Shown: positions 27,593-43,953, counted from the stretch's first letter. The stretch is DNA of 64,000 nucleotides from an uncultured bacterium (GCA_964387845.1 CAYLXA010000005.1:96001-160000); one strand, 5' to 3'. A program made the numbers and translations. Notes: generated by a model not told the origin, from the letters alone.

Positions 27593-29251
<1,659 letters not shown>

Positions 29252-29264
29252 TCATTAATGTAGT

Positions 29265-29292
29265 AAGGGCGAGGCATGCCTCGCCCTTACAA
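29265..29292 (+). terminator. Perfect GC palindrome between groEL1 and groES. Terminator or attenuator-like, with no T-tract.
   Basis: 'gtaagggcgaggcatgcctcgcccttac'. Confidence 0.35.
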
Positions 29293-29330
29293 ACGAAATC
29301 ATAATCAATCAATTACAGAGGAGCGTTACC

Positions 29331-29621
29331 ATGAAGATAAAACCATTAGGCGATAAAATTCTCGTTGAATTATTGGAAGCCGAAGAGAAAACAAAGGGCG
29401 GAATCATTCTTCCCGATTCGGCAAAAGAAGAAAAGAGCGAAGGCAAAGTCATTTCGGTCGGTCCCGGAAAAGTCCTCGAAAGCGGAAAAGTTCAGCCGCT
29501 CGAGATCAAGAAGGGCGACAAAGTGATTTTCGGCAAATACACCGGCGATGAGTTTGTGATCGACGGCCGCAAGCACAAAATTTTGCGCGAAAGCGAAGTT
29601 TTAGCGGTTTTTGAAGATTAA
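29331..29621 (+). CDS. groES: Co-chaperonin GroES
   Basis: 'MKIKPLGDKILV...GGIILPDSAKEK'. Confidence 0.95.
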   Translation: MKIKPLGDKILVELLEAEEKTKGGIILPDSAKEEKSEGKVISVGPGKVLESGKVQPLEIKKGDKVIFGKYTGDEFVIDGRKHKILRESEVLAVFED

Positions 29622-29629
29622 CCTTCATA

Positions 29630-29700
29630 AATTCAAAATATAAATATCAAAATTCAAAACATCGAACTTTTGATATTTGAAATTTGATATTTGAATTTAA
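29630..29700. repeat. AT-rich palindromic element in the groES-groEL2 spacer
   Basis: 'ttcaaaatataaatatcaaaattcaaaaca' and its inverted partner 'ttttgatatttgaaatttgatatttgaa'. The 27-mer recurs at 44163-44192. Confidence 0.55.
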
Positions 29701-29715
29701 ACTTTGAGGTGTGAT

Positions 29716-31350
29716 ATGCCCGCAAAAGAATTAACTTATTCAGAGGAAGTACGCGCCAAGATTAAAAAAGGCGTCGATATCCTCGCCAAGACCGTCAGTG
29801 TCACCTTGGGGCCGCGCGGCCGCAATGTGGTGCTTGACCGCAAGTTCGGTTCTCCCTTAATCACCAAAGACGGCGTCACCGTCGCGAAAGAAATTGACCT
29901 TGAGGATCCGTATGAAAATATGGGTGCTCAGATGGTCCGCGAAGTGGCTGAGAAAACATCAGATGAAGCCGGTGACGGAACCACCACCGCGACGGTTCTC
30001 GCGCAAGCGATCGTCTCGGAAGGTGTCAAGAATGTCACAGCCGGCGCCAATCCGATGGCCCTTAAGCGCGGAATCGATAAAGCCGCGGCGGCCGTCATTG
30101 AATCCATCAAGAAATTAGCGTCTCCGATTAAAGGCAAAGAAGAAATCAAGGCCATCGCTACGATCAGTGCCAACAACGACAGCGTGATCGGCCAGCTTTT
30201 GTCGGATGCGATGGAAAAAGTCGGCAAAGACGGCGTCATCACGGTCGAAGAATCCAGCACCACCAAGACGGAGCTCGAAGTCGTCGAAGGTATGCAGTTT
30301 GACCGCGGTTACATTTCGCCTTATTTCATCACCGACGCGGACCGGATGGAAGTCGTCCTCAAGGATCCCTTGATTCTCATTTACGAAAAGAAGATTTCTT
30401 CCGTAAAAGAAGTCGCCCCGCTCCTCGAGCAGGTAGTCGGCATTGGAGCGCCGCTTCTATTAATCTGCGAAGAAGTCGAAGGCGAAGCGCTTGCCGTTCT
30501 CGTCGTGAATAAAATCCGCGGAACGTTCCAGGCAGCAGCCATCAAGGCGCCCGGATTCGGCGACCGCAGGAAAGCCATGCTCGAAGACATCGCGATTTTA
30601 ACGGGCGGCAAATTCATTTCCGAAGACATCGGTGTGAAGCTCGAAAATGTGGATCTTTCGATGCTCGGAAAAGCCAAGCGTGTTGTGATCGATAAAGACA
30701 ACACCACGATCATTGACGGCGCCGGTAAAAAAGCGGCCGTGAAAGAGCGTTGTGAACTTATTAAGAAACAAATCGATAAATCAGATTCCAGCTACGACAA
30801 AGAAAAACTCCAGGAACGCCTCGCGAAGCTTTCAGGCGGTGTGGCGTTGATTAAAGTCGGTGCTACGACTGAAACCGAAATGAAAGAGAAAAAAGCGCGC
30901 GTGGAAGATGCGTTTCATGCCACAAAAGCATCCGTCGAAGAAGGTGTGGTCGCGGGAGGCGGTGTGGCGCTCGTTCGTTCATTGAAAGCGCTTGATTCTC
31001 TGAAGCTGGAAGGCGACGAGAAGGTGGGTGCCGAAATCATCCGCCGCGCGATCCAAGAACCGCTCCGTAAGATCGCGTCCAACGCGGGTTTCGATGCGTC
31101 TGTCGTGATCGGCAAGGTTCTGGAAGAGAAGGGCAACTTCGGCTTTAACGCTTATTCAGGCGAATACGGCGACTTAGTGGAGCAGGGAATTATTGATCCT
31201 GCAAAAGTGGTCCGCAAAGCGCTCGAGAATGCGTCAAGCATCGCGGGTTTGATTCTCACCACCGAAACCGGCATCGTCGAAAAGCCGAAAGACAAGGACG
31301 AAGAAAAGTCGAAGAAGAAAAATTCTTCACACGCTGGGCATTCTCATTAA
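29716..31350 (+). CDS. groEL: Chaperonin GroEL, copy 2 (with His-rich tail)
   Basis: A full Cpn60 paralogue. Its C-terminus is '[18 protein letters not shown]' instead of GGM repeats. Start taken at 'MPAKELTY'. Confidence 0.9.
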
Positions 31351-31453: not shown

Positions 31454-32485
31454 TCAGCTCAAGCCCGCTTCGAACGACAACGTTTCTCGCTTCAATTCCT
31501 TTCGCAATTCTTTTTCCGTAGGCAGGTATAACTTATACTTTGACGCAAAGATTTGCTTACTTCCTTTCGGAAGCGTGTAGCGTACGACCGCTTCCTTCTT
31601 ATCCTCGCACAAAATAAGGCCCACTGTCGGCTGGTCGGTTTTTTGTTTCAACTCGCGGTCATAGTAATTCACATACATTTGCATTTGACCGATGTCTTGA
31701 TGAGTTAGTTTTCCGATTTTCAAATCAATCAGCACAAAGCACCTGAGCAGCGTGTTATAGAAAACCAGATCGATATAGAAATGATCCCCATCAAGTGTGA
31801 TCCTTTTCTGCCGGGCGACAAACGTAAATCCTTTTCCCAGCTCGAGCAAGAACTTGGAAAGATTATCAATCAGCGCTTGCTCCAGTTTGCTTTCATACAG
31901 CTTCGGGTTGGATTCAAGGCCGGTAAATTCCAGAACGTACGGATCTTTAATCATGTCCGTGTAAGTTCGAAGGTCCTGGCCTTTCTTGGCTAATTTGAAG
32001 AGCCCTTTCTTATCTTTGCTTAAAGAAAGCCGTTCAAAAAGCAGGGAACCCTTTTGACGCTCCAATTCCCGGACTGACCAATTGTTTTTGACACATTCAA
32101 TTTCATAAAAGGAGCGTGCCTCCGGTCGTTCGACGCGCATTAAAATCCGGTAATGTGTCCAGCTCAATTCGTGACGCAGTGCGTCACGAATTGGGAAGGT
32201 AAGATAAAACTGACGAATATATCGCAAATTCGAATCATCAAAGCCTCTCCCAAAATCTCTTGTTAGTTTTTCCGAAAGCGACTTCAATAACGTCTCACCG
32301 TAAGTGGCACGTTTTTGGCCTTTTTGTTCTTCTTCCACAATTTCACGGCCGATTAACCAATAGGCCTGCACCATTTCGGTGTTGACGGTACGCGCAATGT
32401 TGGAACGTGCCGATTCTATGATCTGACGGATTTTGGAATAGACTTGGTCTTGCTTTGAGTTTTTCTTTTGAACTTCTTGCGGCAT
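31454..32485 (-). CDS. DUF1016 / YhcG-like PDDEXK nuclease-domain protein
   Basis: '...ARTVNTEMVQAYWLIGREIVEEEQ...' has the YhcG/DUF1016 architecture, with an N-terminal helical part and a C-terminal PD-(D/E)xK-like part. Confidence 0.7.
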   Translation of the reverse strand: MPQEVQKKNSKQDQVYSKIRQIIESARSNIARTVNTEMVQAYWLIGREIVEEEQKGQKRATYGETLLKSLSEKLTRDFGRGFDDSNLRYIRQFYLTFPIRDALRHELSWTHYRILMRVERPEARSFYEIECVKNNWSVRELERQKGSLLFERLSLSKDKKGLFKLAKKGQDLRTYTDMIKDPYVLEFTGLESNPKLYESKLEQALIDNLSKFLLELGKGFTFVARQKRITLDGDHFYIDLVFYNTLLRCFVLIDLKIGKLTHQDIGQMQMYVNYYDRELKQKTDQPTVGLILCEDKKEAVVRYTLPKGSKQIFASKYKLYLPTEKELRKELKRETLSFEAGLS

Positions 32486-32814
32486 GAGTAATTTGCCCTC
32501 CCTTTTTTGGTAGCCCTTCCGCCTTTTGGCTTCAGGACGATGCTTCTAACTGCGTGAAGCATCGGGCAAATCACTTAATGTGGTGTCTTTATGCGATGAT
32601 CGCAACCCTGTCCCAGCGCCACTTTGAAACAAAAACTTGTTTCTAATCAAAGCGCTGGACTGGACTCATTTCCTATAGACCGAACGGTTCCATTAATGAA
32701 AATGAGTCCTGGTACTGCTTGATGCGAGAGTGAAGGATATCATATGTCCGGTCCGTATCAAAATGATTTTTTTCAGTTAAATTAATCCCGAAAGGGTATA
32801 TTTTATTAATTCGA

Positions 32815-32918
32815 GTTAAATATTATACCTTATAAGGTATAATATTTTTAAATTATACCAAAAAAGGTATAATATTTTACTAAAGTAGTTGATATTATAC
32901 CCTTAATGGTATACTATT
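32815..32918 (+). promoter_or_regulatory. Three TATACC-N5/6-GGTATA operator palindromes upstream of hipB
   Basis: 'tataccttataaggtata', 'tataccaaaaaaggtata' and 'tatacccttaatggtata'. The third overlaps the first in-frame ATG. Confidence 0.6.
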
Positions 32919-32923
32919 CTGCC

Positions 32924-33145
32924 ATGGATTACATTGGAGAAGAAATTCAAAATTTGCGTAAAAGAGCAGGGCTCACTCAACGAGAATTCGCGAAGCGAGT
33001 GGGTGTGGGGCTTAGATTTATTCGTGATCTTGAACAAGGAAAATCTACCGTACGGCTTGATAAGGTAAATCAGGTGCTTGAATTTTTAGGGCATCATTTG
33101 GAGATTGTTGCCAACCGTGAACGAAAAAATATTCAGAAAAGCTAG
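32924..33145 (+). CDS. hipB: XRE-family HTH protein, HipB-like
   Basis: 'LRKRAGLTQREFAKRVGVGLRFIRDLEQGK' is a Cro/C1-type HTH. It is the first gene of a three-gene hip operon. Confidence 0.75.
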   Translation: MDYIGEEIQNLRKRAGLTQREFAKRVGVGLRFIRDLEQGKSTVRLDKVNQVLEFLGHHLEIVANRERKNIQKS

Positions 33146-33461
33146 AGTTAACTACAAAGATGAACTTGCCGGTTATTTACAAGAAACCGAGAATGGTTTT
33201 CAATTTCTGTATGATGAAAATTATTTGCGTTCCGGCGGACAGCCAATTTCTGTGTCACTTCCTTTAACGAATGAGCCTTACGAATCAAAAGAGCTTTTTA
33301 GTTTCTTCCGCGGACTTTTGCCGGAAGGTTGGTACCTCGATATCGTGAGTGCGGCTAAGAAAATCGATACCAATGATTCTTTCGGCCTGCTTCTGGCTAC
33401 CACAGGCGACACGATCGGCGCAGTGACCGTATATCCAATCCGGGAAAGCGATGAGTCCTAA
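33117..33461 (+). CDS. hipS: HipS-like protein (stand-alone HipA N-terminal subdomain)
   Basis: About 115 aa, similar to HipA N-terminal subdomain 1. The start is uncertain (GTG at 33117 or TTG at 33105). It overlaps the next gene by 11 nt. Confidence 0.6.
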   Translation: MNEKIFRKARVNYKDELAGYLQETENGFQFLYDENYLRSGGQPISVSLPLTNEPYESKELFSFFRGLLPEGWYLDIVSAAKKIDTNDSFGLLLATTGDTIGAVTVYPIRESDES

Positions 33462-34311
33462 TCTGTTTGAAGAAATGTTTGGCACGAGCGAAGCTCCTAC
33501 AATCCCACTTTCGTTGAAGGATGTTCCTCTTCAAGCGCAAGTGATGGCGGGGTATATGTCCATTTCAGGGGTGCAGCCAAAATTGGTGCTGAAATTGGAT
33601 AAGCGTAAAAATGAGCTGACGGTGGCTCAGACGGATGGTGAATATATTTTAAAACCGCAAATCCCGCATTTCCCCCAGACGCCCGAAAATGAAAACTGCT
33701 GTATGGATATCGCTCAGGCGTTTGAGATTGAGGTGCCGCCCCATTGCCTTCTTCCACTGAAAGACGGAAGCCTGGCTTATGCGGTGAAGCGTTTCGATCG
33801 TGTGAGCGGCGAAAAAATCAATCAAGAAAGCTTTTATCAAATTCTTGAAAAAAGAGACAAATATATGGGCTCTCTGGAACAAATCGGTAACAGCCTGAAA
33901 CAAATTTCCGTAGTGCCGGGCCTGGATGTTCAGCTTTTCTTTGAATTAGTCGTTTTCAATTTTCTGATCGGCAATGGTGACGCGCATTTTAAAAATTACT
34001 CCATTTCTTATTTAAAGGATGGCATCCGGCTTTCTCCGGCCTATGATCTGGTTTGTTCCAAGCTGGTGATTCCGGGCGATTCGGATTCCGCACTCACGAT
34101 CAATGGCAAGAAGAATAATCTTAGGCGGGGCGATTTTGATGTGTTGGCTGCTTATTTAAAAATTCCGGAAAAGGTTCGTTACGATAAGTTTGCAGGTCAG
34201 CTTGGAAAAATGGAGCAATTGATTCGAGCCAGCCAACTCTCGGCAGATTTTAAAAAGACGTTTATTCAAATAGTTTCTTCACGTTTTGATCGGCTTAAAT
34301 TGGTGAATTAA
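33451..34311 (+). CDS. hipT: HipT-like Ser/Thr kinase toxin (HipA C-terminal kinase domain)
   Basis: 'LIGNGDAHFKNYSI' is the catalytic motif and 'SPAYDLVCS' is also present. At 286 aa it lacks the HipA N-terminal subdomain, which is supplied separately. Confidence 0.7.
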   Translation: MSPNLFEEMFGTSEAPTIPLSLKDVPLQAQVMAGYMSISGVQPKLVLKLDKRKNELTVAQTDGEYILKPQIPHFPQTPENENCCMDIAQAFEIEVPPHCLLPLKDGSLAYAVKRFDRVSGEKINQESFYQILEKRDKYMGSLEQIGNSLKQISVVPGLDVQLFFELVVFNFLIGNGDAHFKNYSISYLKDGIRLSPAYDLVCSKLVIPGDSDSALTINGKKNNLRRGDFDVLAAYLKIPEKVRYDKFAGQLGKMEQLIRASQLSADFKKTFIQIVSSRFDRLKLVN

Positions 34312-34480
34312 GCGCGCTGAGCCCGGCACGATTAGAACAGGTACCAAAACATTACAAAGTAGTTAATCTAATTTCCTTATATTCACAGTTAAAATATGTA
34401 TATTTATATACATATATATGTATTGAATAGTACATTTATATGTATATAATAATACATATTATATTTGACATTAACACTTT

Positions 34481-34909
34481 TTGAGGGTAGATTTTCTCGT
34501 ACCGGAGGAAGCTGAATATACTAGATTAGTCAAATTTATGACCGCGGCCGGCTATAAACAAGTGACAGGCTATGGTTGGCAGAAAAAAGGAGAGGCAATC
34601 ATTTTTGATCTTTATGTCGGTAATTCGGTTTATTCAACGGAATTATTGTCATCGCCGCTTGAAAAAGGCGGCCATCAGAAATTGAAGGAATGGAATAAAA
34701 TTTATTTAGGTGCTTTAAATCCGGTAGATCTGATTATTTCAAAAATGTTTCGCGGCAGCGAAGTGGATGTCCAGGACAGTTTAGCGTTACTCAAGCATGA
34801 GAAAATTAGTATTGAGGAATTAAAGAAACGATACATCAAAACAGCCAAATATGATGTAAGCGAAGACAGGGTATTGAAAAATTTAGATACATTACTCAGG
34901 AGGCTTTAA
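34481..34909 (+). CDS. Hypothetical protein, first gene of an uncharacterised two-gene module
   Basis: The ORF begins at a TTG, with an alternative ATG at 34538. An AT-rich palindromic promoter region lies upstream. No confident family was assigned. Confidence 0.5.
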   Translation: MRVDFLVPEEAEYTRLVKFMTAAGYKQVTGYGWQKKGEAIIFDLYVGNSVYSTELLSSPLEKGGHQKLKEWNKIYLGALNPVDLIISKMFRGSEVDVQDSLALLKHEKISIEELKKRYIKTAKYDVSEDRVLKNLDTLLRRL

Positions 34910-34911
34910 TC

Positions 34912-35583
34912 ATGGATAAAAGTGATTTGTTGGACCAATTGGCTCAGCATGGCTATTCATTGATGAAGCCAAAATCAGCCGAGCCGGCCGAAAAACTGCT
35001 GGAGGCATTGCTGAAGCAGGATGATGCGCGTCTTTTGGAGGGCTTTCCGGTGGTGTTGGCCAACGCGTTTGACCAAAAAGACGGCTTGACGTGGGAAAAT
35101 CCTAAATGGAATGCTGAGGAATGGCAGGGAAAAAACAGAAGAAAATTGGTGGCCATGCTGTCTTTTAGTTATTATTTGTTTCGTTTATTTGGATTGGCGG
35201 AGTCTGAAAAGAAAGTTTTAGATTTGGTCAAGAAATTAAAAGGGGATAAAACGCTTCTTCATTTAACCGAATCTTTTGCGGAGTCCAAAGAAGTAGACTT
35301 GGACGGTGTCTCGCTATCAACGGAAAGATTAAAAAGCGCTTTCCGCCAATATGTATTAACGTCGGATCAAGGCGACGAAGTCGAAAAAAAGAAACGCGCG
35401 TTGGAATTAGAGCTGCTGCTTTCCGAACTGTTCAGCACGCGGCAAAAAGAACTGCTTGAGAAGCGGCTTGGTGGGGAGGAATTCACCAAAACAGAGCGTG
35501 AATACTATTACCGCGTCGTCAAAAAACGCTTGAAAGCGCTCGCGAGTGACGAACTTCACCAGATGGCCCGTTCGTTGGTTTAG
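34912..35583 (+). CDS. Hypothetical protein, second gene of the two-gene module
   Basis: It starts 3 nt after the upstream gene. The C-terminal 'RQKELLEKRLGGEEFTKTEREYYYRVVKKRLKAL' looks helix-turn-helix-like. Confidence 0.55.
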   Translation: MDKSDLLDQLAQHGYSLMKPKSAEPAEKLLEALLKQDDARLLEGFPVVLANAFDQKDGLTWENPKWNAEEWQGKNRRKLVAMLSFSYYLFRLFGLAESEKKVLDLVKKLKGDKTLLHLTESFAESKEVDLDGVSLSTERLKSAFRQYVLTSDQGDEVEKKKRALELELLLSELFSTRQKELLEKRLGGEEFTKTEREYYYRVVKKRLKALASDELHQMARSLV

Positions 35584-35633: not shown

Positions 35634-36020
35634 CCTATCCGCCGAGCCTTACCCCTTACCCCTAAGTTTCAATCTGGACACAAAGCTTTTTGAGGCATAA
35701 ATCCTACTTAAATTGTGCCTGTACCTGTCCACCAAAATGATGCCTGGCACCTTTCTGTTAAGGATTCATATGCAACTCCTTTTTCCTGTAACATCAGGAT
35801 ATCAGGTGTTGCACTAGTAACTTGAACTCAAGCAGGTACCGAAGTAGAAATCCACTTCCTATCCGCTATACGTTGTTCGCGAACCAATAAAATAGTTGTT
35901 GAAATATAATATAAAGATTGTAAAATAATTACCTCACGCAAACAGTAAACCCCTCTCACGCCTTCACGCGCAAAATCAAACTAATTTCGTAATGCGTTCA
36001 CAAGAAAGGCGGATTTGCCA

Positions 36021-36809
36021 ATGAAAAAAGAAAAACTCATTTCTCAGAGGGATGGTTTACCAATTCGTTCAAGCGGTCCTTGGATCCGCAAAAAACATCA
36101 CTATTTAATCAGATATGCTGACATATTTACCCGAGGGATGAAGAACAAATGGGAATTGACGTACCTTGATCTTTTTGCCGGGCCCGGATGCTGCTTAATT
36201 GAGAAAGAGATGATCGAATTAGCCGGATCTCCGTTACTTGCATTAGGTTTTGATTTTAGGAAATACATTTTTATTGAACAGGATCATGATGACCTTGAAG
36301 CATTGAAACAGCGGTGCTCAAAATCACCAAAACTAAGCCAGATTCAATTCATAGAAGGGGATTGTAATAAGAATATTGATCAAATTCGATTGACGGGATT
36401 AACGCTGGCTTTTATCGATCCAACTGGTATTGACGTTCATTTTGAAACGATTAAACGACTCACCTCTTTAGGGCCGGTGGACCTGCTAATAAACATACCA
36501 TTTCACATTGATATCAAGCGCAACTTCACGAAGTATATAAAAACCCAACATAAAAAATTGGATCTCTTTCTTGGCGGTAAGGTACCGTGGGATAAATTGC
36601 ATCAAGAAAGGGATGTTTTAGAGTTATACAAAAAGCGAATAAAGGATTTGGGGTATCAAACCGTAGAATACAGCGACATAGTTGTCAGTAATACAAACAA
36701 AGTTCCTATGTACTTTCTTTTCTTTGCGTCCAAGCATTCGCGTGGTGTAGAATTCTGGAAGAAAATTACCAAGAAAGACGAAACCGGACAACTGGAGTTA
36801 GAACTCTAA
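36021..36809 (+). CDS. Three-Cys-motif partner protein TcmP family (MTase-like fold)
   Basis: '[11 protein letters not shown]' resembles SAM-binding motif I. 'FIDPTG' sits in the place of a DPPY-like motif. The gene is adjacent to a Gp37/Gp68 (DUF5131) gene, which is the defining context of TcmP. Confidence 0.6.
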
Positions 36810-36811
36810 GA

Positions 36812-37570
36812 ATGAGCGATAAATCAAATATCGAATGGACCGACGCGACATGGAATCCGGTAACGGGATGCAATAAAATCAGCCCCGGATGTAAAAACTG
36901 CTACGCCGAAACTTTCGCTGAGCGCTGGCGGGGAATTCCGGGCCATCCCTACGAACAGGGTTTTGACCTCAGATTATGGCCTGAGCGTGTCGGCTTGCCA
37001 TTATCGTGGAAAGAGCCGCGGATGATTTTTGTCAATTCCATGTCTGATCTTTTTCATAAAGATGTTCCGGATGACTTTATAGGGAAAGTATTTGAAACGA
37101 TGCTCAAAGCTAATCAGCATACTTTCCAGGTTCTGACCAAGCGGCCTGAGCGCATGGTTGAATGGACCAAGAAAACATTCGGCAATCAAAAATTACCGCG
37201 TCATATCTGGCTTGGTGTTTCGGTTGAAAACCAGGATTACGTATGGCGAATCATGTATCTTCAGCAAACACCGGCTCAAATCCGTTTTCTTTCGGTTGAG
37301 CCTCTTTTGGGGCCTGTTGTTTTAAAATCTTCAAATTTAAAAGGCATTCATTGGGTGATCGTGGGTGGCGAGAGCGGACACAGAGCCCGTCCTATGAATC
37401 CCGACTGGGCGCGTGATATCCGCAATCAATGCGAAAAATATGGCGTCGCTTTTTTCTTCAAACAATGGGGCGCTTTTAACGCGAAAGGCGAACGCGTTGG
37501 TAAAAAAGCCGCCGGCCGGGTTCTCGACCGCAGAACCTGGAACGAAATGCCAATTACAATCCCCGCCTAG
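36812..37570 (+). CDS. Phage Gp37/Gp68 family protein (DUF5131), three-Cys motif
   Basis: The N-terminus '[27 protein letters not shown]' is the family signature and includes a CX6CX2C motif. Confidence 0.7.
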
Positions 37571-37625: not shown

Positions 37626-37744
37626 CATCATGATATAATTCCTATCGCGACGGCGCCCACATTGACCGCCGCGTGATGGCACTTGCGCCAGCGTTACCGC
37701 AGGTGCCTGCGAACGAAGTGACGCAGAATAAAGCGCAAGTGTCT

Positions 37745-38092
37745 ATGTCCGACATCAAGAAACTCACCGAAAAGATCAAGCAATTCCGCGACGAACGGGA
37801 TTGGAAGCAATTCCACAACCACAAAGATATGGCACTTTCACTTGTTCTTGAAGCCGCTGAACTTTTAGAACATTTCCAGTGGAAAACATTGGATGAAGTT
37901 GAAAAGCACGTGAAAACCTCAAAAGAGGATGTTTCAGATGAGCTTGGCGATGTCGCGATCTATCTTTTCGAGCTCGCCGATAACTTAGGGATAGACCTAT
38001 CAGAAGCGGTAGAAAGCAAGCTTCTTAAGAATGCCAGAAAATATCCTATACAAAAATCTAAAGGCACCATAACCAAGTACAATCAATTGTAA
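37745..38092 (+). CDS. MazG-like nucleotide pyrophosphohydrolase (all-alpha NTP-PPase)
   Basis: 'ERDWKQFHNHKDMALSLVLEAAELLEHFQWK...ELGDVAIYLFELAD' is the MazG/dCTPase-like EExxE/D signature. Confidence 0.7.
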   Translation: MSDIKKLTEKIKQFRDERDWKQFHNHKDMALSLVLEAAELLEHFQWKTLDEVEKHVKTSKEDVSDELGDVAIYLFELADNLGIDLSEAVESKLLKNARKYPIQKSKGTITKYNQL

Positions 38093-38099
38093 AGATTAA

Positions 38100-38876
38100 A
38101 TGCCCGGCAATGAATCTGCAGTAATAAAGTATTTGTTCAGAAATAAGAATCGTCTCGAGTTACCTCATTTAGGTTTAATAAAATCAATTGGGTTTCCAAA
38201 TGGACTCACAAATAACTACAAAGAAATAAAAAATGAAAATGAAATTTTAGAATGTTGCTCAGACAATGCTCGAAAAAAAGCAGATGTCTATATTAATGGG
38301 CAAGGCGTATCAATAAAACAATCAGGAGGAAGTTTTTCTTTTAATCGTTTGCAGCGTGCCGAGTTAATAGAAGTTTTTGCTAGTTTAATTTTTGATGCCC
38401 CTCATAATGTTTTAACTCAATTAGATAAAGAAGTTGAAAAATTTCATTTTGGAAAATTATCAGGACGTGGTAGGCCGTGGAAAGATTTTTTCTCAAATAA
38501 AGAATTTTATGCTTTAACAAATGCTCTTATGATGTTGCAATCTCCAAATTATGGACTTTCTCTTCATCCCGCTAAATTTATTCTGGAGGCTTCAAAAAAT
38601 TTAACAACCAATCCGAGTTTAAAAGTTTATACTTTTGATGAATATTTTGAACGTTATAACGAGTTTTTCAGGATTGCTATAAGACGTGTTTGGTTGGGGC
38701 AGAATAGTAAATCTGAGCATGGCCGTGCAAAAAGTCTAATAGCAAAACCTGAGAATGCAACCTGGGTCTTTAATACAATTTCCGGAACGCCAAGAAGTGG
38801 TTGGAAAGTTGATTTTCCAAAGTCGGAAAGAAGAACTGTGTATTATTTGATGATAGAAAAAGTAAATTCAAAATGA
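38100..38876 (+). CDS. Hypothetical protein, putative type II restriction endonuclease by context
   Basis: Very AT-rich, with no family recognised. It directly precedes vsr and overlaps it by 4 nt, upstream of the dcm-type methyltransferase. Confidence 0.4.
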   Translation: MPGNESAVIKYLFRNKNRLELPHLGLIKSIGFPNGLTNNYKEIKNENEILECCSDNARKKADVYINGQGVSIKQSGGSFSFNRLQRAELIEVFASLIFDAPHNVLTQLDKEVEKFHFGKLSGRGRPWKDFFSNKEFYALTNALMMLQSPNYGLSLHPAKFILEASKNLTTNPSLKVYTFDEYFERYNEFFRIAIRRVWLGQNSKSEHGRAKSLIAKPENATWVFNTISGTPRSGWKVDFPKSERRTVYYLMIEKVNSK

Positions 38877-39301
38877 CATTTGTATTTCAAACGACAAGTC
38901 AACGCTCCGAGTTAATGAAAAAGATTAAAGGAGTTAACACTAAGCCAGAAATTGCTTTTGCAAAGAAACTTGAATTATACAAAGTCAAGTTTAGAAAACA
39001 TTTTAAAAAACTCCCTGGAGTACCGGATTTTGCTATTTTGAGAGGTAGAGTAGCGGTGTTTATCGATGGGGAGTTTTGGCATGGATACAATTGGGTTAAT
39101 AAAAAGAAAAGGATAAGATCCAACCGACAATACTGGATTAAAAAAATAGAAAGAAATATACTAAGAGATTCGATAAATATGAGAGAATTAAAGAAAATAG
39201 GTTGGTATCCTTTAAGATTTTGGCAGCATGAAGTTGTTGCTGAGGGTGATAAATGTATAAAGAAAATCGAAAAAATAATGCAGCGACGAAGTTCAAAATA
39301 G
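38873..39301 (+). CDS. vsr: Very-short-patch-repair endonuclease
   Basis: 'KPEIAFAKKL...PGVPDFAILRGRVAVFIDGEFWHG'. Confidence 0.85.
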   Translation: MTFVFQTTSQRSELMKKIKGVNTKPEIAFAKKLELYKVKFRKHFKKLPGVPDFAILRGRVAVFIDGEFWHGYNWVNKKKRIRSNRQYWIKKIERNILRDSINMRELKKIGWYPLRFWQHEVVAEGDKCIKKIEKIMQRRSSK

Positions 39302-40383
39302 CATCTTTTTTTGCTGGCTGTGGCGGCCTAGATTTAGGTTTCCAGCAAGCGGGCTTTGATGTTGTTTGGGCAAATGAATACGATAAAACAATTTGGGCTA
39401 CCTACGAACACAACCATCCTCATACGTTTTTATGCAAGAAATCTATTATCGATGTCAAATCAGATGAAATTCCAACTGTTGTTGGCATGATAGGTGGCCC
39501 GCCATGCCAAAGCTGGAGTTTAGCCGGAGCCATGAGGGGAGTAAAAGACCCGCGAGGTAAACTTTTTTATGAATACATAAGAATCTTGGCCGATAAACAA
39601 CCATCATTTTTCTTAGCCGAAAATGTTGCGGGCATTGTTTCTAGCACTCATGTGAATTCATTTGAAAATATCCTTAAAAAATTCGAAGAAATTGGTTACG
39701 TTACTTCATATAAATTGCTTGATGCAAAATCCTACGGCGTTCCTCAGGATCGGAAAAGAGTTATCATTGTAGGGTATTCTAAAGGTTTACATAAGAAATT
39801 TGAATTCCCGCAAGAAACTCATGGTGTAAATTCAGCGAATGGCGACTTATTCAAGCCACATTTAAAACCCTATGAAACTTTACGCTCTGCAATTGACGAT
39901 TTGCCTAATCCGGTGCCTGCTAGTTTGAAAAATAAGTCGAACAGCAGAATTCGTATTCCAAATCACGAATATATGACAGGAGGTTTTTCTACCATTTACA
40001 TGTCACGAAATAGGAGAAGAAATTGGAATGAGCCTTCATTTACAATTCAGGCGGGAGGCCGGCATGCACCGCTACATCCATCAAGCACTGAAATGATTAA
40101 AAAAGAGCCAGATTGGTGGGTATTTAAAAAGAAAGACAAAAAGGCTTATCGGCGAATGTCGGTAAGAGAATGCGCACGAGTTCAAACCTTCCCTGATAAA
40201 TTCATATTCAAATATGATTCAATTGCGGATGGTTATAAAATGGTTGGTAATGCAGTTCCCGTCGAGTTGGCGCGTGTTATAGCATTAAGAATAAAGTCAG
40301 ATTTGATACCAGAGAAAAATAATCTTAAAAGATCATCCCTTCGCAAAACACCCTATTCCGAATTGGTGTTAGCTTCCTCATAA
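39253..40383 (+). CDS. dcm: DNA (cytosine-5)-methyltransferase
   Basis: Motif I 'FAGCGGLDLGF', motif IV 'GGPPCQSWS' and 'ENV'. The start is uncertain and overlaps the vsr 3' end. Confidence 0.9.
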   Translation: MYKENRKNNAATKFKIASFFAGCGGLDLGFQQAGFDVVWANEYDKTIWATYEHNHPHTFLCKKSIIDVKSDEIPTVVGMIGGPPCQSWSLAGAMRGVKDPRGKLFYEYIRILADKQPSFFLAENVAGIVSSTHVNSFENILKKFEEIGYVTSYKLLDAKSYGVPQDRKRVIIVGYSKGLHKKFEFPQETHGVNSANGDLFKPHLKPYETLRSAIDDLPNPVPASLKNKSNSRIRIPNHEYMTGGFSTIYMSRNRRRNWNEPSFTIQAGGRHAPLHPSSTEMIKKEPDWWVFKKKDKKAYRRMSVRECARVQTFPDKFIFKYDSIADGYKMVGNAVPVELARVIALRIKSDLIPEKNNLKRSSLRKTPYSELVLASS

Positions 40384-40424
40384 ACCGTAAACTGGACACC
40401 GTCCGGCAGAAAAAAGGTTGTTGA

Positions 40425-41540
40425 ATGAGGCAAATATTCATAGTAGTGGCAGGAGGCAATGCTGCTGCTGATCGTCACTTCGAAGATACAATCCAACGTA
40501 AACGTACCTTAGATGAAGTGCGGCAATTTCTATCTTCCCAAGAAATTCATGAGATCGAATCAGTTTATCATACAGCACCTTTTATTGTCTGGGGCGCTAT
40601 TCCCGGCCCAATGAATATTCCGCGTTGGCAAAGTATGCGTGTTGGCGATATTGTTTTGATTTACACAAGAGGACATATCCGATTAATTGGCGAAGTGGCA
40701 TCAAAAGTAAGAAGTAATTCGTTGGCTCGCTATTTTTGGAAAGAAACACCCGAAAACAAAACCTGGGAATTGATTTATTTTATTGTAAATGAACAAAGGG
40801 TAAATATACCGATGCCTTTATTAAATGAAGCGCTTGGTTATAGCGCAAGTTACTCTCCGAGGGGATTTAGTTCTGTCGATTCTGATAAGGTCAAATCATT
40901 CGTTAATCGTTATGGCGATATATTCGAAGGGCTTAAAACACTCAGTAAAGGCGAGAAACTAATCGAAATTTCGCCAGCGAAAAAGTTAGAAGTCCAACAG
41001 GTTGAAGAAAAGATTGAACAATCATCGAATGAGCATGACGAAATGCAATGGCGGTTAATTAGATTGGGCAAATTGTCAAGGTACGATGTTTGGGTTCCCA
41101 GAAATGATCAAGGGCACAGCTTTGGAGGTCAACGATTTCGGGATTTTGTGTTGCCGGAATTCCACGAGAGTTTAGATGTTCCACCCAGTATTAAAAATAT
41201 CGATGTCGTGTGGAAATTTGGTCCTTATTCGATCACATCTGCATTTGAAGTCGAACATTCAACATCCGTTTATTCAGGAATTTTAAGGCTTTCGGATCTG
41301 AGAACCGAAACACCGAATTCACAATACCCACTTTTTATTGTTGCTGACGAAGCAAGAAAGCGGAAGGTATTTTCGGAACTTGCGCGCCCCACTTTCTCAA
41401 ATCCCTTTTTGCGACTTCACGAAGTAATACGATTTTTGAGTTACGAAAGAATCAGGGACATTGATGAAAAGTATAAGCAAGAACCTGAATTTGAACCGCA
41501 AATACTCTTTACTGCCGGAGAAACTTTCGAGAAAAATTAA
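40425..41540 (+). CDS. PUA/EVE-like N-terminal domain fused to a putative PD-(D/E)xK nuclease. Candidate modification-dependent (type IV-like) restriction enzyme.
   Basis: The N-terminus 'VGDIVLIYTRGHIRLIGEV' is EVE/PUA-like. The C-terminus 'IDVVWKFGP...AFEVEHS' is (D/E)xK-like. Confidence 0.5.
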   Translation: MRQIFIVVAGGNAAADRHFEDTIQRKRTLDEVRQFLSSQEIHEIESVYHTAPFIVWGAIPGPMNIPRWQSMRVGDIVLIYTRGHIRLIGEVASKVRSNSLARYFWKETPENKTWELIYFIVNEQRVNIPMPLLNEALGYSASYSPRGFSSVDSDKVKSFVNRYGDIFEGLKTLSKGEKLIEISPAKKLEVQQVEEKIEQSSNEHDEMQWRLIRLGKLSRYDVWVPRNDQGHSFGGQRFRDFVLPEFHESLDVPPSIKNIDVVWKFGPYSITSAFEVEHSTSVYSGILRLSDLRTETPNSQYPLFIVADEARKRKVFSELARPTFSNPFLRLHEVIRFLSYERIRDIDEKYKQEPEFEPQILFTAGETFEKN

Positions 41541-41936: not shown

Positions 41937-42533
41937 TTGTTGTACATCATGACAACAAGTTTAATCTTTCAGCTCCAGCAAACCAAGTCGCCGCTCAGGA
42001 AGAAGCTTTTATCGTACTTCTTCACGAATCCCGGGGCGAAGCTCTATCTCAGAGATATCGCGCTCAAACTCCATGTCGATCCCGCGAATCTTTCGCGCGA
42101 GCTCAAGCGGCTCACCGATGAAAGTGTTTTTGTTGCCCAGAAGCAGGGTAATCTCAAATATTTCTCTTTGAATCCAAAGCACGCCTTATATGAAGAATTT
42201 AAGTCCATGATTTTTAAGACCATCGGCGCTCAAGGCGCGATTGAAAACCTGTTAAGTAAAATCCCGGGAATTAAACGCGCTTTTATTTATGGTTCGTTTG
42301 CCAAAAATACGGAGCGTGCGGATTCCGATATCGACCTTTGTATGATCATCCAAAAAAAAGAATTCAAAGAAAATCCTTTCCTTGAGGGAATTCATAAACT
42401 CGAAGGTGAACTTGGCAGGGAAATCAATTATACTTTCTTTACCGACGAAGAATGGCAGTCCAAGCAGCGATCTAAAGATAGCTTTGTCACCGGAATTCTT
42501 AAGAATAAAAAAATCGATCTCATGCATATATGA
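41937..42533 (+). CDS. wHTH-fused minimal nucleotidyltransferase (MNT-like)
   Basis: The N-terminal HTH 'LYLRDIALKLHVDPANLSRELKRL' and the NTase motif 'IYGSFAKN...DSDIDLCMI'. Confidence 0.7.
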   Translation: MLYIMTTSLIFQLQQTKSPLRKKLLSYFFTNPGAKLYLRDIALKLHVDPANLSRELKRLTDESVFVAQKQGNLKYFSLNPKHALYEEFKSMIFKTIGAQGAIENLLSKIPGIKRAFIYGSFAKNTERADSDIDLCMIIQKKEFKENPFLEGIHKLEGELGREINYTFFTDEEWQSKQRSKDSFVTGILKNKKIDLMHI

Positions 42534-42994
42534 AAAAAATTGATCTTCAAGATTTAATTCAAGAAGGGCAGCTTCAAGAAGAGCCAGGTATCGGCTGGGA
42601 CCAGGTGGAGCGTTTAATTAAACGGGCATTTGAAGATTTGAAATCAGCCGACCGGAACATGTCCTTTGATGAGCCGGGCGCGATGGATTTTATCTATAAG
42701 GCGATGTTTCATGCTGGGAACGCTTTGATTCGTTCATATGGGTTTAGGCCGGGCGCTACCAGACAGCATCAAGGTGTGATTACGGCAGTTGGGCGGATCT
42801 TGGGCGTTGAATCAAAGGCGCTGATTCTGAAATTTGATAAACTCAGGAAACGCCGCAATGAGTTTGAATATCAGGGCATTTTTGCGATGGGAAGAGAAGA
42901 GTTGAAAGATTCCATCGAACAAGCCAAACAATTGGTTGGCGTGATACGAAAAGCACTCGAAGATTCTCATCCACAAAAGCAGTTTAAATGGTAA
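42530..42994 (+). CDS. HEPN-like protein partnered with the NTase
   Basis: An all-alpha ~150 aa protein overlapping the NTase gene by 4 nt. It carries 'RKRRNEFEY' where the Rx4-6H motif would sit, but the His is not evident. Confidence 0.5.
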   Translation: MKKIDLQDLIQEGQLQEEPGIGWDQVERLIKRAFEDLKSADRNMSFDEPGAMDFIYKAMFHAGNALIRSYGFRPGATRQHQGVITAVGRILGVESKALILKFDKLRKRRNEFEYQGIFAMGREELKDSIEQAKQLVGVIRKALEDSHPQKQFKW

Positions 42995-43315: not shown

Positions 43316-43645
43316 ATGATGACTTGGAAAATTTTGCATTACCGGAGGCGCGACGGAAGGATTCCTTTCCAAGAATGGTTTTCCGAATTTTACGATGCTC
43401 GGGTTTGCGCTAGAATTCAATCACGGATTCACAGGTTAGAGCGTGGTAACTTTGGAGATTCAAAGAGCGTAGGTGATGGGCTCTTCGAGTTACGATTTCA
43501 CTTTGGGCCCGGCTATCGCATTTATTATGGAATTCGTCACGGCCGGATTGTTATTTTGCTTTGCGGGGGCGACAAAAGTAGTCAGCAAAAAGATATTCAA
43601 ATAGCAAACGTATATTGGCAGGATTATTTGGAGAGTCAACTATGA
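43316..43645 (+). CDS. higB: RelE/ParE-superfamily toxin, HigB-like addiction-module killer protein
   Basis: 'WKILHYRRRDGRIPFQEWF...GDGLFELRFHFGPGYRIYYG'. Confidence 0.8.
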   Translation: MMTWKILHYRRRDGRIPFQEWFSEFYDARVCARIQSRIHRLERGNFGDSKSVGDGLFELRFHFGPGYRIYYGIRHGRIVILLCGGDKSSQQKDIQIANVYWQDYLESQL

Positions 43646-43953
43646 GACGATATAAACCGTATGTAGATCATCAGGAATGGTTGTTGAAATCATTAAAGGA
43701 TCCTGAGATGGCTTCTGAATATCTAAATGCCGTGCTAGAAGAGGGTGATAAGCAATTATTTTTGATGGCACTCAAAAATGTGGTGGACGCGCAAGGTGGG
43801 ATGACAAAGATGTCGGATAAATCTAAAATCAATCGTGTGAGCCTTTACAAAATGCTCTCAAAGAACGGAAACCCCGGCTTTGAAAATATTTTGAGATTAC
43901 TTCAAATTGCCGGCATTCGTTTTCGGGTGACACCGCAATCTCGTAGGAAATAA
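43642..43953 (+). CDS. higA: HigA-family addiction-module antidote protein (HTH)
   Basis: 'LNAVLEEGDKQLFLMALKNVVDAQGGMTKMSDKSKINRVSLYKMLS'. It overlaps the higB stop (ATGA). Confidence 0.8.
   Translation: MRRYKPYVDHQEWLLKSLKDPEMASEYLNAVLEEGDKQLFLMALKNVVDAQGGMTKMSDKSKINRVSLYKMLSKNGNPGFENILRLLQIAGIRFRVTPQSRRK

Follow-up and report, generated by a model that had tools for sequence, protein, structure and literature searches.

The genes considered here lie at positions 38100 to 41540 of a 64,000-nucleotide stretch of DNA from an uncultured bacterium (GCA_964387845.1, CAYLXA010000005.1:96001-160000), which in its full length we call the window. Four open reading frames (ORFs) follow one another on the plus strand: an ORF of 258 amino acids (aa) at 38100-38876, a very-short-patch T:G mismatch endonuclease, Vsr, of 142 aa at 38873-39301, a C5-cytosine DNA methyltransferase (MTase) of 376 aa, called Dcm here, at 39253-40383, and a protein of 371 aa, called p371, at 40425-41540, which appears to fuse a reader of modified bases to a nuclease. 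All four stand where a previous reading of the sequence alone had put them. The stop codon of the 258-aa gene and the start of Vsr overlap by 4 nucleotides (nt), Vsr and Dcm overlap by 49 nt, and Dcm is separated from the p371 gene by a 41-nt spacer that carries no terminator-like site; scans of the locus for promoters and terminators gave signals at the level of shuffled sequence. We consider it likely, if some way from certain, that the locus comprises two independent defense units lying side by side: a mobile GGCC-type restriction-modification (R-M) cassette formed by the first three genes, and the type IV enzyme p371 together with a MazG-like protein, the two having become neighbors by insertion.

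Vsr matches Pfam family PF03852 (E 9e-20, 70.8 bits against a cutoff of 27), NCBIfam model TIGR00632 (110 bits against a cutoff of 97.85), and the PADLOC Vsr model (E 1.7e-13), while Dcm matches PF00145 (E 7.9e-90) and carries motifs FAGCGG (FxGxG), GPPCQ, and ENV in its translation, which bears out the previous identification of a C5-MTase preceded by Vsr. The 258-aa ORF in front of them had been described as extremely AT-rich and without a recognizable family, and had been proposed to encode the cognate type II restriction endonuclease (REase). The description holds on both counts: the gene has a GC content of 0.329 and a GC content at third codon positions (GC3) of 0.22, compared to a GC content of 0.473 for the whole window and a GC3 of ~0.60 for guaA, and its product yielded no match to Pfam or NCBIfam at E <= 0.1 and only noise against the sequences of the PDB.

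The predicted structure of the 258-aa protein is, with high model confidence, that of a HinP1I/MspI/HhaI-type endonuclease, and the model contains the two-sheet PD-(D/E)xK-derived fold that these three enzymes have in common. Structure prediction, named beforehand as a check that might reveal the lack of a nuclease fold, has thus found one. R.HinP1I, R.MspI, and R.HhaI are monomeric type IIP enzymes that recognize GC palindromes of 4 bp; the 258-aa protein shares their fold but is only 9-16% identical to them in structural alignments, without detectable membership in their sequence families. Within an alignment of 35 family members, residues E5, D62, S71, and K73 are invariant, the latter three in the context KKAD-x-Y-x-N...S-x-K-Q, and all of them are kept in the window copy; a further conserved block reads RR-x-W-x-GQ-x-S-x-SEH. 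The four residues fall on helix 5-14 and on strands 63-65 and 68-74 of the model. We regard E5, D62 (38283-38285), and S71-x-K73 (38310-38318) as the putative active site, whose arrangement D62-X8-S71-x-K73 sets it apart from the three known enzymes.

The gene company kept by this family points the same way. At 45-56% identity the family comprises at least 157 clusters, and in a sample of 80 metagenomic loci that contain one of its members, Dcm was found in 64, mostly 54-66% identical to the window's Dcm, the other 16 loci being truncated on one side. Of the loci in which the 258-aa homolog is flanked on either side by 1.5 kb or more, 22 of 22 contain an orthologous Dcm (54-66% identity). The two genes occur in tandem or convergently, with either one upstream, and Vsr accompanies them in a part of the loci only. 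This combination of consistent linkage and variable orientation is the behavior of a cognate R-M pair rather than of a fixed operon. A p371 homolog was found in none of the 80 loci. Together with the modeled fold, the linkage supports the proposed role of the 258-aa protein as the REase candidate, of type IIP, and we predict that it represents a new sequence family of type II endonucleases with the HinP1I/MspI fold. The REase-Vsr-Dcm unit (38100-40383) is, then, probably a mobile type II R-M cassette.

Two lines of evidence make GGCC its probable target. First, Dcm aligns with M.HaeIII (1dct) almost from end to end (E 1.5e-105, residues 16-350 against 3-323), including the variable target-recognition region, so that the MTase is predicted to be GGCC-specific. 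Second, we counted palindromes in the pooled REase and MTase genes of 42 related cassettes (74.7 kb) and found GGCC to be the most depleted of the 4-bp palindromes, with 54 sites observed versus 163 expected (observed-to-expected ratio [O/E] of 0.33), followed by CGCG with 0.66; in the host DNA flanking these cassettes, the O/E of GGCC is 0.46. For BspRI-like GGCC systems, a shortage of recognition sites within the R-M genes has served as a criterion, and the GGCC isoschizomers BspRI, BsuRI, and HaeIII show no sequence relationship to one another and have similar methyltransferases (PMC2978348). The window's cassette family shares with HaeIII/BspRI/BsuRI-type systems the M.HaeIII-like MTase and the shortage of GGCC in its REase and MTase genes; it differs from them in that the window endonuclease matches no Pfam REase family at E <= 0.1, those of GGCC enzymes included, and in that the cassette contains a Vsr gene. 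The predicted GGCC target also separates the 258-aa protein from the HinP1I/MspI/HhaI class, whose targets are GCGC or CCGG.

Several observations in the window itself run counter to an active GGCC cassette. Its own REase and MTase genes hold six GGCC sites, the highest number among the 42 cassettes (tied with locus L159; the median is 1, and 15 have none), and the window as a whole lacks GGCC depletion (O/E 0.90). In addition, the 258-aa motif has S-x-K where (D/E)-x-K would be expected. It may be, then, that the window REase arrived recently, that it is inactive, or that its specificity has changed. The second of these options would mean that the cassette is decaying or incomplete, with a working MTase and Vsr and a 258-aa protein that no longer restricts, and would accommodate both the accumulated GGCC sites and the serine at the middle catalytic position. 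However, the ORF is full length and retains every residue that is invariant in the 35 homologs, and the S-x-K motif is found throughout the family, so that the window copy carries no lesion of its own. HinP1I and MspI have non-acidic residues (Q and N) at the equivalent position as well. We therefore consider decay quite unlikely. The six GGCC sites and the strong compositional contrast are best read as signs that the cassette arrived recently, which the GC3 of 0.22 fits and which would suffice to account for the missing avoidance; palindrome avoidance is thus uninformative in the window alone and becomes informative once pooled over the 42 cassettes. In the scenario of a functional cassette, we infer that the 258-aa protein is catalytically active and that, as a small and probably monomeric endonuclease of the HinP1I/MspI/HhaI fold, it would cut an unmethylated target, most likely GGCC, that the M.HaeIII-like MTase would protect host sites as GG(5mC)C (5mC, 5-methylcytosine), and that Vsr would repair the T:G mismatches arising from deamination of 5mC.

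The fourth gene encodes a protein of a different kind. The sequence-only reading had likened the N terminus of p371 to EVE/PUA readers of modified bases, pointing to VGDIVLIYTRGHIRLIGEV (residues 73-91), and structure comparison now supports this likeness: the N-terminal domain (residues 1-185; 40425-40979, plus strand) has the fold of a PUA-like modified-base reader of the YTH/EVE class. Residues 1-180 were modeled by AlphaFold2 with a predicted local distance difference test (pLDDT) score of ~80-90, and a Foldseek search of the PDB with this domain returned Thermococcus gammatolerans McrB's N-terminal domain first (6p0f/6p0g; E 1.2e-7, TM-target 0.66), and thereafter, in this order, MJECL36 (2p5d), the EVE-HNH type IV enzyme VcaM4I (6yex), numerous YTH domains, EVE proteins, and THYN1 in complex with 5mC DNA. 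When its sequence profile was used instead, 6p0f again came first among PDB entries, at a marginal E of 0.016 and with positions 3-145 aligned, whereas a single-sequence search with full-length p371 against PDB sequences gave noise only. The McrB N-domain of the type IV system McrBC is hence the closest relative of the p371 reader both by fold and by sequence profile, at ~20% identity. A point against this assignment is that the domain matches none of the Pfam EVE/YTH models at E <= 0.1. Aromatic residues conserved in p371 include W56, W68, W105, and W114.

The domain is also found in front of other effectors. Searching 1.84 billion cluster representatives at E <= 0.001 retrieved 1,335 proteins of very varied lengths, and in the members sampled the domain is joined to HNH, NucS_C (a NucS-type PD-(D/E)xK domain), McrB-like AAA_5, further EVE, or ParB_N modules. 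HNH is the largest class of partner among proteins of 290-360 aa, one of which matches the PADLOC model for type IV methyl-directed systems. Such swapping of effector modules behind the same domain is what marks a sensor of modified DNA in type IV restriction, and the fusions to McrB-like AAA_5 modules extend the likeness to McrBC. p371 departs from T. gammatolerans McrB in that its reader is coupled straight to a putative nuclease domain, where McrB has a GTPase motor for the recruitment of McrC. Homologs of this YTH-like domain fused to PD-(D/E)xK nucleases have been noted before by Bell et al. 2020 (PMC7641849).

The C-terminal domain of p371 (residues ~196-371; 41010-41540, plus strand) had been read as a (D/E)xK nuclease from the motif AFEVEHS (residues 273-279), and this claim fared less evenly. 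In its favor, p371 bears the precomputed Pfam label PF27126, NmeDI_C, and its residues 202-326 match positions 176-309 of the 351 positions of the PADLOC REase_II model PDLC03534 (E 8.4e-10); R.NmeDI is likewise 351 aa long, a coincidence that does not prove the model to derive from it. The domain recurs at ~40% identity behind an unrelated N-domain of ~230 aa in proteins from Flavobacterium, Clostridium, Neobacillus, and Solibacter, and D228, D260 (in IDVVW), E275-x-E277 (in FEVE[H/N/K]S), and a YSGILRLSDL helix are invariant across both architectures; D260 (41202-41204), E275 (41247-41249), and E277 (41253-41255) are so in alignment A1 and in the cross-subfamily alignment A3. The fold is less certain, as the model has a pLDDT below 50 over residues 241-301, the catalytic core, and does not confirm it. 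Two further points weigh against the nuclease assignment: the domain profile found no solved relative among PDB sequences, and the motif is D...ExE instead of the canonical D...ExK. The D...ExE pattern fits, in our view, a BamHI-type variant of PD-(D/E)xK, as does the order in which the secondary-structure elements are predicted to follow one another. Aligning the domain profile with hhalign to the commonest C-terminal partner of the reader gave no match, but that partner is HNH, and the comparison is hence no test of a PD-(D/E)xK relationship. The proteins with the unrelated N-domain are of ~414 aa (L062:5275-6519, L068, L070, L082, L080, and others) and carry the NmeDI_C-like domain as FEVEKS...YSGILRLSDL, the N-domain containing IKGLGPAVA..LYFLHP; they have no Pfam match and no C5-MTase within 6 kb and represent another architecture of putative solitary nuclease.

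Next, we asked what accompanies p371 in other genomes. The family comprises 753 clusters (90% identity) at E <= 0.001, of which the best 120 are ~60-79% identical over the full length, and its hosts include Acidobacteriota, Patescibacteria, Omnitrophota, Planctomycetia, Gammaproteobacteria, and one Asgard archaeon; we found no biochemical characterization of any member in the literature searched. Among ~51 loci with full-length homologs, examined to a distance of 6 kb, only L036, L037, and L040 have a C5-MTase or a Vsr. When the 150 nearest neighbors from 39 loci were scanned with Pfam, no MTase family recurred, and a single C5-MTase appeared in the families listed; MazG-like proteins came up most often (4), ahead of Vsr (3) and Fic (3), and the other neighbors included PIN, RhuM, NERD, integrase, and housekeeping genes. 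In each of the three loci, the Dcm belongs to a system of its own: those of L036 and L040 come with their own type II endonuclease (PADLOC REase_II, E 1.4e-9 and E 1.2e-63, respectively, the latter also Pfam RE_HpaII with E 5e-85), and that of L037 is part of DISARM (DrmB, E 4e-77; DrmA, E 4e-223). All three have a Vsr as the next gene downstream of their p371 homolog, each with a different C5-MTase system (L036:7160-9958, L037:7199-13055, L040:7122-9530). At L036:8387-9958, on the minus strand of a metagenome-assembled genome of Promethearchaeota, a 523-aa frame combines LexA_DNA_bind, Peptidase_S24, and C5 DNA methylase domains, and is either a LexA-methyltransferase fusion or an overextended ORF call with a GTG start.

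These neighborhoods bear on whether p371 could be a conventional type II endonuclease like R.NmeDI, serving as the real or second partner of the adjacent Dcm, with the 258-aa protein being something else. R.NmeDI from Neisseria meningitidis, after which the Pfam family covering the C-domain is named, cleaves to either side of RCCGGY (12/7 nt), requires two sites, acts as a tetramer, and is encoded by a gene that overlaps that of its own C5-MTase (PMC2095814). The position of p371, 41 nt downstream of Dcm and on the same strand, might be seen in that light. The NmeDI system also includes a Vsr, which would add to the resemblance. However, the REase model is matched by only ~125 C-terminal residues of p371, ~47 of 51 loci of the p371 family lack a C5-MTase within 6 kb, the closest relative of p371, in locus L167, has no cassette beside it, each Dcm of the three other Dcm-linked loci has an effector of its own, and it is the 258-aa family, not p371, that tracks the window's Dcm in 22 of 22 loci. 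We thus hold this alternative to be extremely improbable. p371 was rejected as the cognate REase of Dcm on the linkage evidence. It was also rejected as a full member of the R.NmeDI family, with which it has the C-terminal domain alone in common: its N-domain is unrelated, and its family has no cognate MTase, where R.NmeDI has an overlapping one.

Instead, p371 is a putative solitary nuclease without an MTase partner, and hence not a conventional type II enzyme, which could not stand alone. Its reader fold, the lack of a recurrent MTase, and the fusion of the same reader to HNH, NucS-type, and McrB-like modules together point to a predicted, uncharacterized family of type IV enzymes that combine a PUA reader with an NmeDI-type nuclease, in agreement with the type IV architecture proposed from the sequence. 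The class of type IV enzymes built from a PUA-superfamily reader and a nuclease has been described (PMC7897488). Like VcaM4I (EVE-HNH) and MspJI (SRA-like and PD-(D/E)xK), p371 is a single chain with a predicted N-terminal sensor, a predicted C-terminal nuclease, and no cognate MTase, but its nuclease module is of the NmeDI_C type and not of the HNH or MspJI type. For such an enzyme we infer a dependence on modified DNA: the PUA-like domain would flip the modified base into a pocket, and cleavage by the NmeDI-type domain (D260...E275-x-E277) would follow close to it; the R.NmeDI analogy suggests that the cut may fall at a fixed distance and that the enzyme may act as an oligomer.

How this enzyme came to lie next to an R-M cassette is suggested by the gene on the cassette's other side. 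At 37673-38092 on the plus strand, the window encodes an all-alpha MazG-like nucleoside triphosphate pyrophosphatase (PF12643, E 7.5e-21), the PDB match of which is dCTP pyrophosphatase 1, DCTPP1 (RS21-C6; E 1.4e-19). In L167, which holds both the closest p371 homolog (79% identical) and a MazG (L167:107-454) 68% identical to that of the window, MazG ends 2 nt before the start of p371, and the cassette is absent; comparison with this locus also indicates that the real start of the window's MazG is probably M25, at 37745. The p371 homologs of L030, L033, L034, and L042 likewise have MazG as their immediate upstream neighbor, with gaps of 9-31 nt. In the window, by contrast, the two genes are 2,332 bp apart, and this block (38093-40424; ~2.33 kb) holds exactly the REase, Vsr, and Dcm genes with short spacers. 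With a GC3 of 0.22-0.33, against 0.49 for MazG, it exceeds the rest of the locus in AT content. Given these observations and the wide circulation of the cassette without p371, the parsimonious reading is that the REase-Vsr-Dcm cassette was inserted into a MazG-p371 module, the gap it entered being presumably one of 2-9 nt. A search for direct or inverted repeats bracketing the block found none.

If so, the adjacency of the two units is historical and not a functional or designed pairing. The sequence-only reading had called the presence of a 5mC writer next to a modified-base nuclease unusual; the adjacency is real, but it is explained by insertion, and it is not singular, as similar arrangements occur in three other loci. 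Two observations weigh against such a purely historical account. In 4 of ~52 loci, the window included, p371 has a Vsr/C5-MTase system next to it, which seems to be more than chance would produce and may mean that the two are functionally linked. Moreover, p371 is about as AT-rich as the cassette (GC3 of 0.34 and 0.33), and, judged by composition alone, the two could have arrived together. On the other hand, the MazG and p371 genes are AT-rich relative to the genome in other hosts as well, so that composition alone gives no date for the arrival of p371.

The partnership with MazG admits readings of its own. One is that MazG and p371 form a housekeeping pair for DNA hygiene, in which MazG removes noncanonical deoxynucleoside triphosphates (dNTPs) and the reader-nuclease incises host DNA containing misincorporated or damaged bases. 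The DCTPP1-like MazG does belong to a pool-sanitizing family, the repair enzyme Vsr is the second commonest neighbor of p371, and the p371 family is highly conserved, at 60-65% identity across phyla. Yet the distribution of the pair is patchy, its genes are AT-rich relative to their hosts, and they sit in defense and toxin-antitoxin islands beside DISARM, Cas1, PIN, Fic, RhuM, and HEPN/MNT genes; the same reader is joined to McrB-like GTPases and HNH type IV modules, and MazG is present in only ~6 of 52 p371 loci. A role in hygiene is therefore very unlikely in our judgment. It is tempting to speculate that MazG and the reader-nuclease constitute a previously undescribed two-gene defense module, in which the pyrophosphatase destroys the modified dNTP precursor of a phage and the nuclease cuts DNA that still carries the modified base, and that the recurrent Vsr/C5-MTase neighbors hint at cross-talk with cytosine methylation, but we regard this as unlikely. 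We favor a second unit made up of p371 and the DCTPP1-like MazG, with p371 acting as a single-chain modification-dependent endonuclease.

Which base p371 would read is constrained by the company it keeps. It must tolerate the GG(5mC)C of its own host and so probably reads another mark, and its coexistence with four different 5mC-writing systems makes a context-free reader of 5mC unlikely. The N-domain of T. gammatolerans McrB binds DNA with N6-methyladenine (6mA) better than unmodified or 5mC DNA, and the base flipped in the crystal is adenine (PMC7544203, PMC7680126). Such a preference in the nearest structural relative would explain how p371 coexists with a 5mC writer and makes 6mA the leading candidate mark; it is, at the same time, a weakness of the argument that 6mA is placed ahead of other marks by analogy only. 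The expectation that the two units differ in specificity is supported by the same analogy, which suggests that they differ in the kind of base modification and not only in sequence context.

Alternatively, modified cytosines in other contexts are possible marks. p371 might read 5mC, 5-hydroxymethylcytosine (5hmC), or glucosylated 5hmC in contexts or states other than those to which the resident GGCC methylation gives rise, with MazG hydrolyzing modified dCTP and the Vsr/C5-MTase neighbors reflecting a shared theme. The 5mC readers EVE/THYN1 and the 5mC/5hmC-dependent VcaM4I are among the fold matches of p371, entry 6p0g is titled as a complex with m5C DNA, the neighboring MazG shares homology with dCTP pyrophosphatase 1, and Vsr/C5-MTase systems lie beside p371 in the four loci mentioned. 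Set against this are the reported preference of the closest structural relative for 6mA over 5mC DNA and the number of 5mC contexts that such a reader would have to avoid, given the four C5-MTases found next to p371 (M.HaeIII-like, that of an HpaII-like system, DrmMII-type of DISARM, and one other). We therefore treat a modified-cytosine reader as a tentative and rather unlikely alternative, and retain 6mA as the leading candidate.

The locus is part of an island of ~12.6 kb (31.4-44.0 kb) flanked by groEL/groES/groEL on one side and by IMPDH-like and guaA genes on the other. To the left of the island, a GroES gene lies between two full-length GroEL (Cpn60) genes (27611-31350). The left part of the island (31454-35583) contains a YhcG/DUF1016 PD-(D/E)xK nuclease on the minus strand, a split HipA (Couple_hipA ORF, 33105-33461; HipA_C ORF, 33451-34311), and a DUF6036 nucleotidyltransferase, after which comes a 223-aa ORF without annotation. 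Directly upstream of MazG (36015-37570) are TcmP, a three-Cys-motif partner protein (TIGR04474, E 1e-39), and a DUF5131 protein (E 2e-104), a pair that corresponds to the PADLOC candidate defense systems PDC-M41 and PDC-M30. Directly downstream of p371 follow two toxin-antitoxin-like pairs (41937-42994 and 43316-43953), one of an MNT nucleotidyltransferase and a HEPN protein and one of a Gp49/HigB-like protein and an HI1420-type antidote; an HI1420-type gene adjoins the p371 homolog in L167, too.

Both units belong to known kinds of bacterial defense and do not represent a new kind. If the predicted specificity is correct, the 258-aa family would be another unrelated sequence family of GGCC cutters, and the small HinP1I/MspI/HhaI structural class would gain a new specificity. 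A single-chain enzyme that cuts in dependence on 6mA or another mark by means of an NmeDI-type domain could be of use as an epigenetic reagent. The locus records how a mobile restriction cassette landed inside another defense module, and the p371 family, if its members act as predicted, would help to account for defense in bacteria with small genomes.

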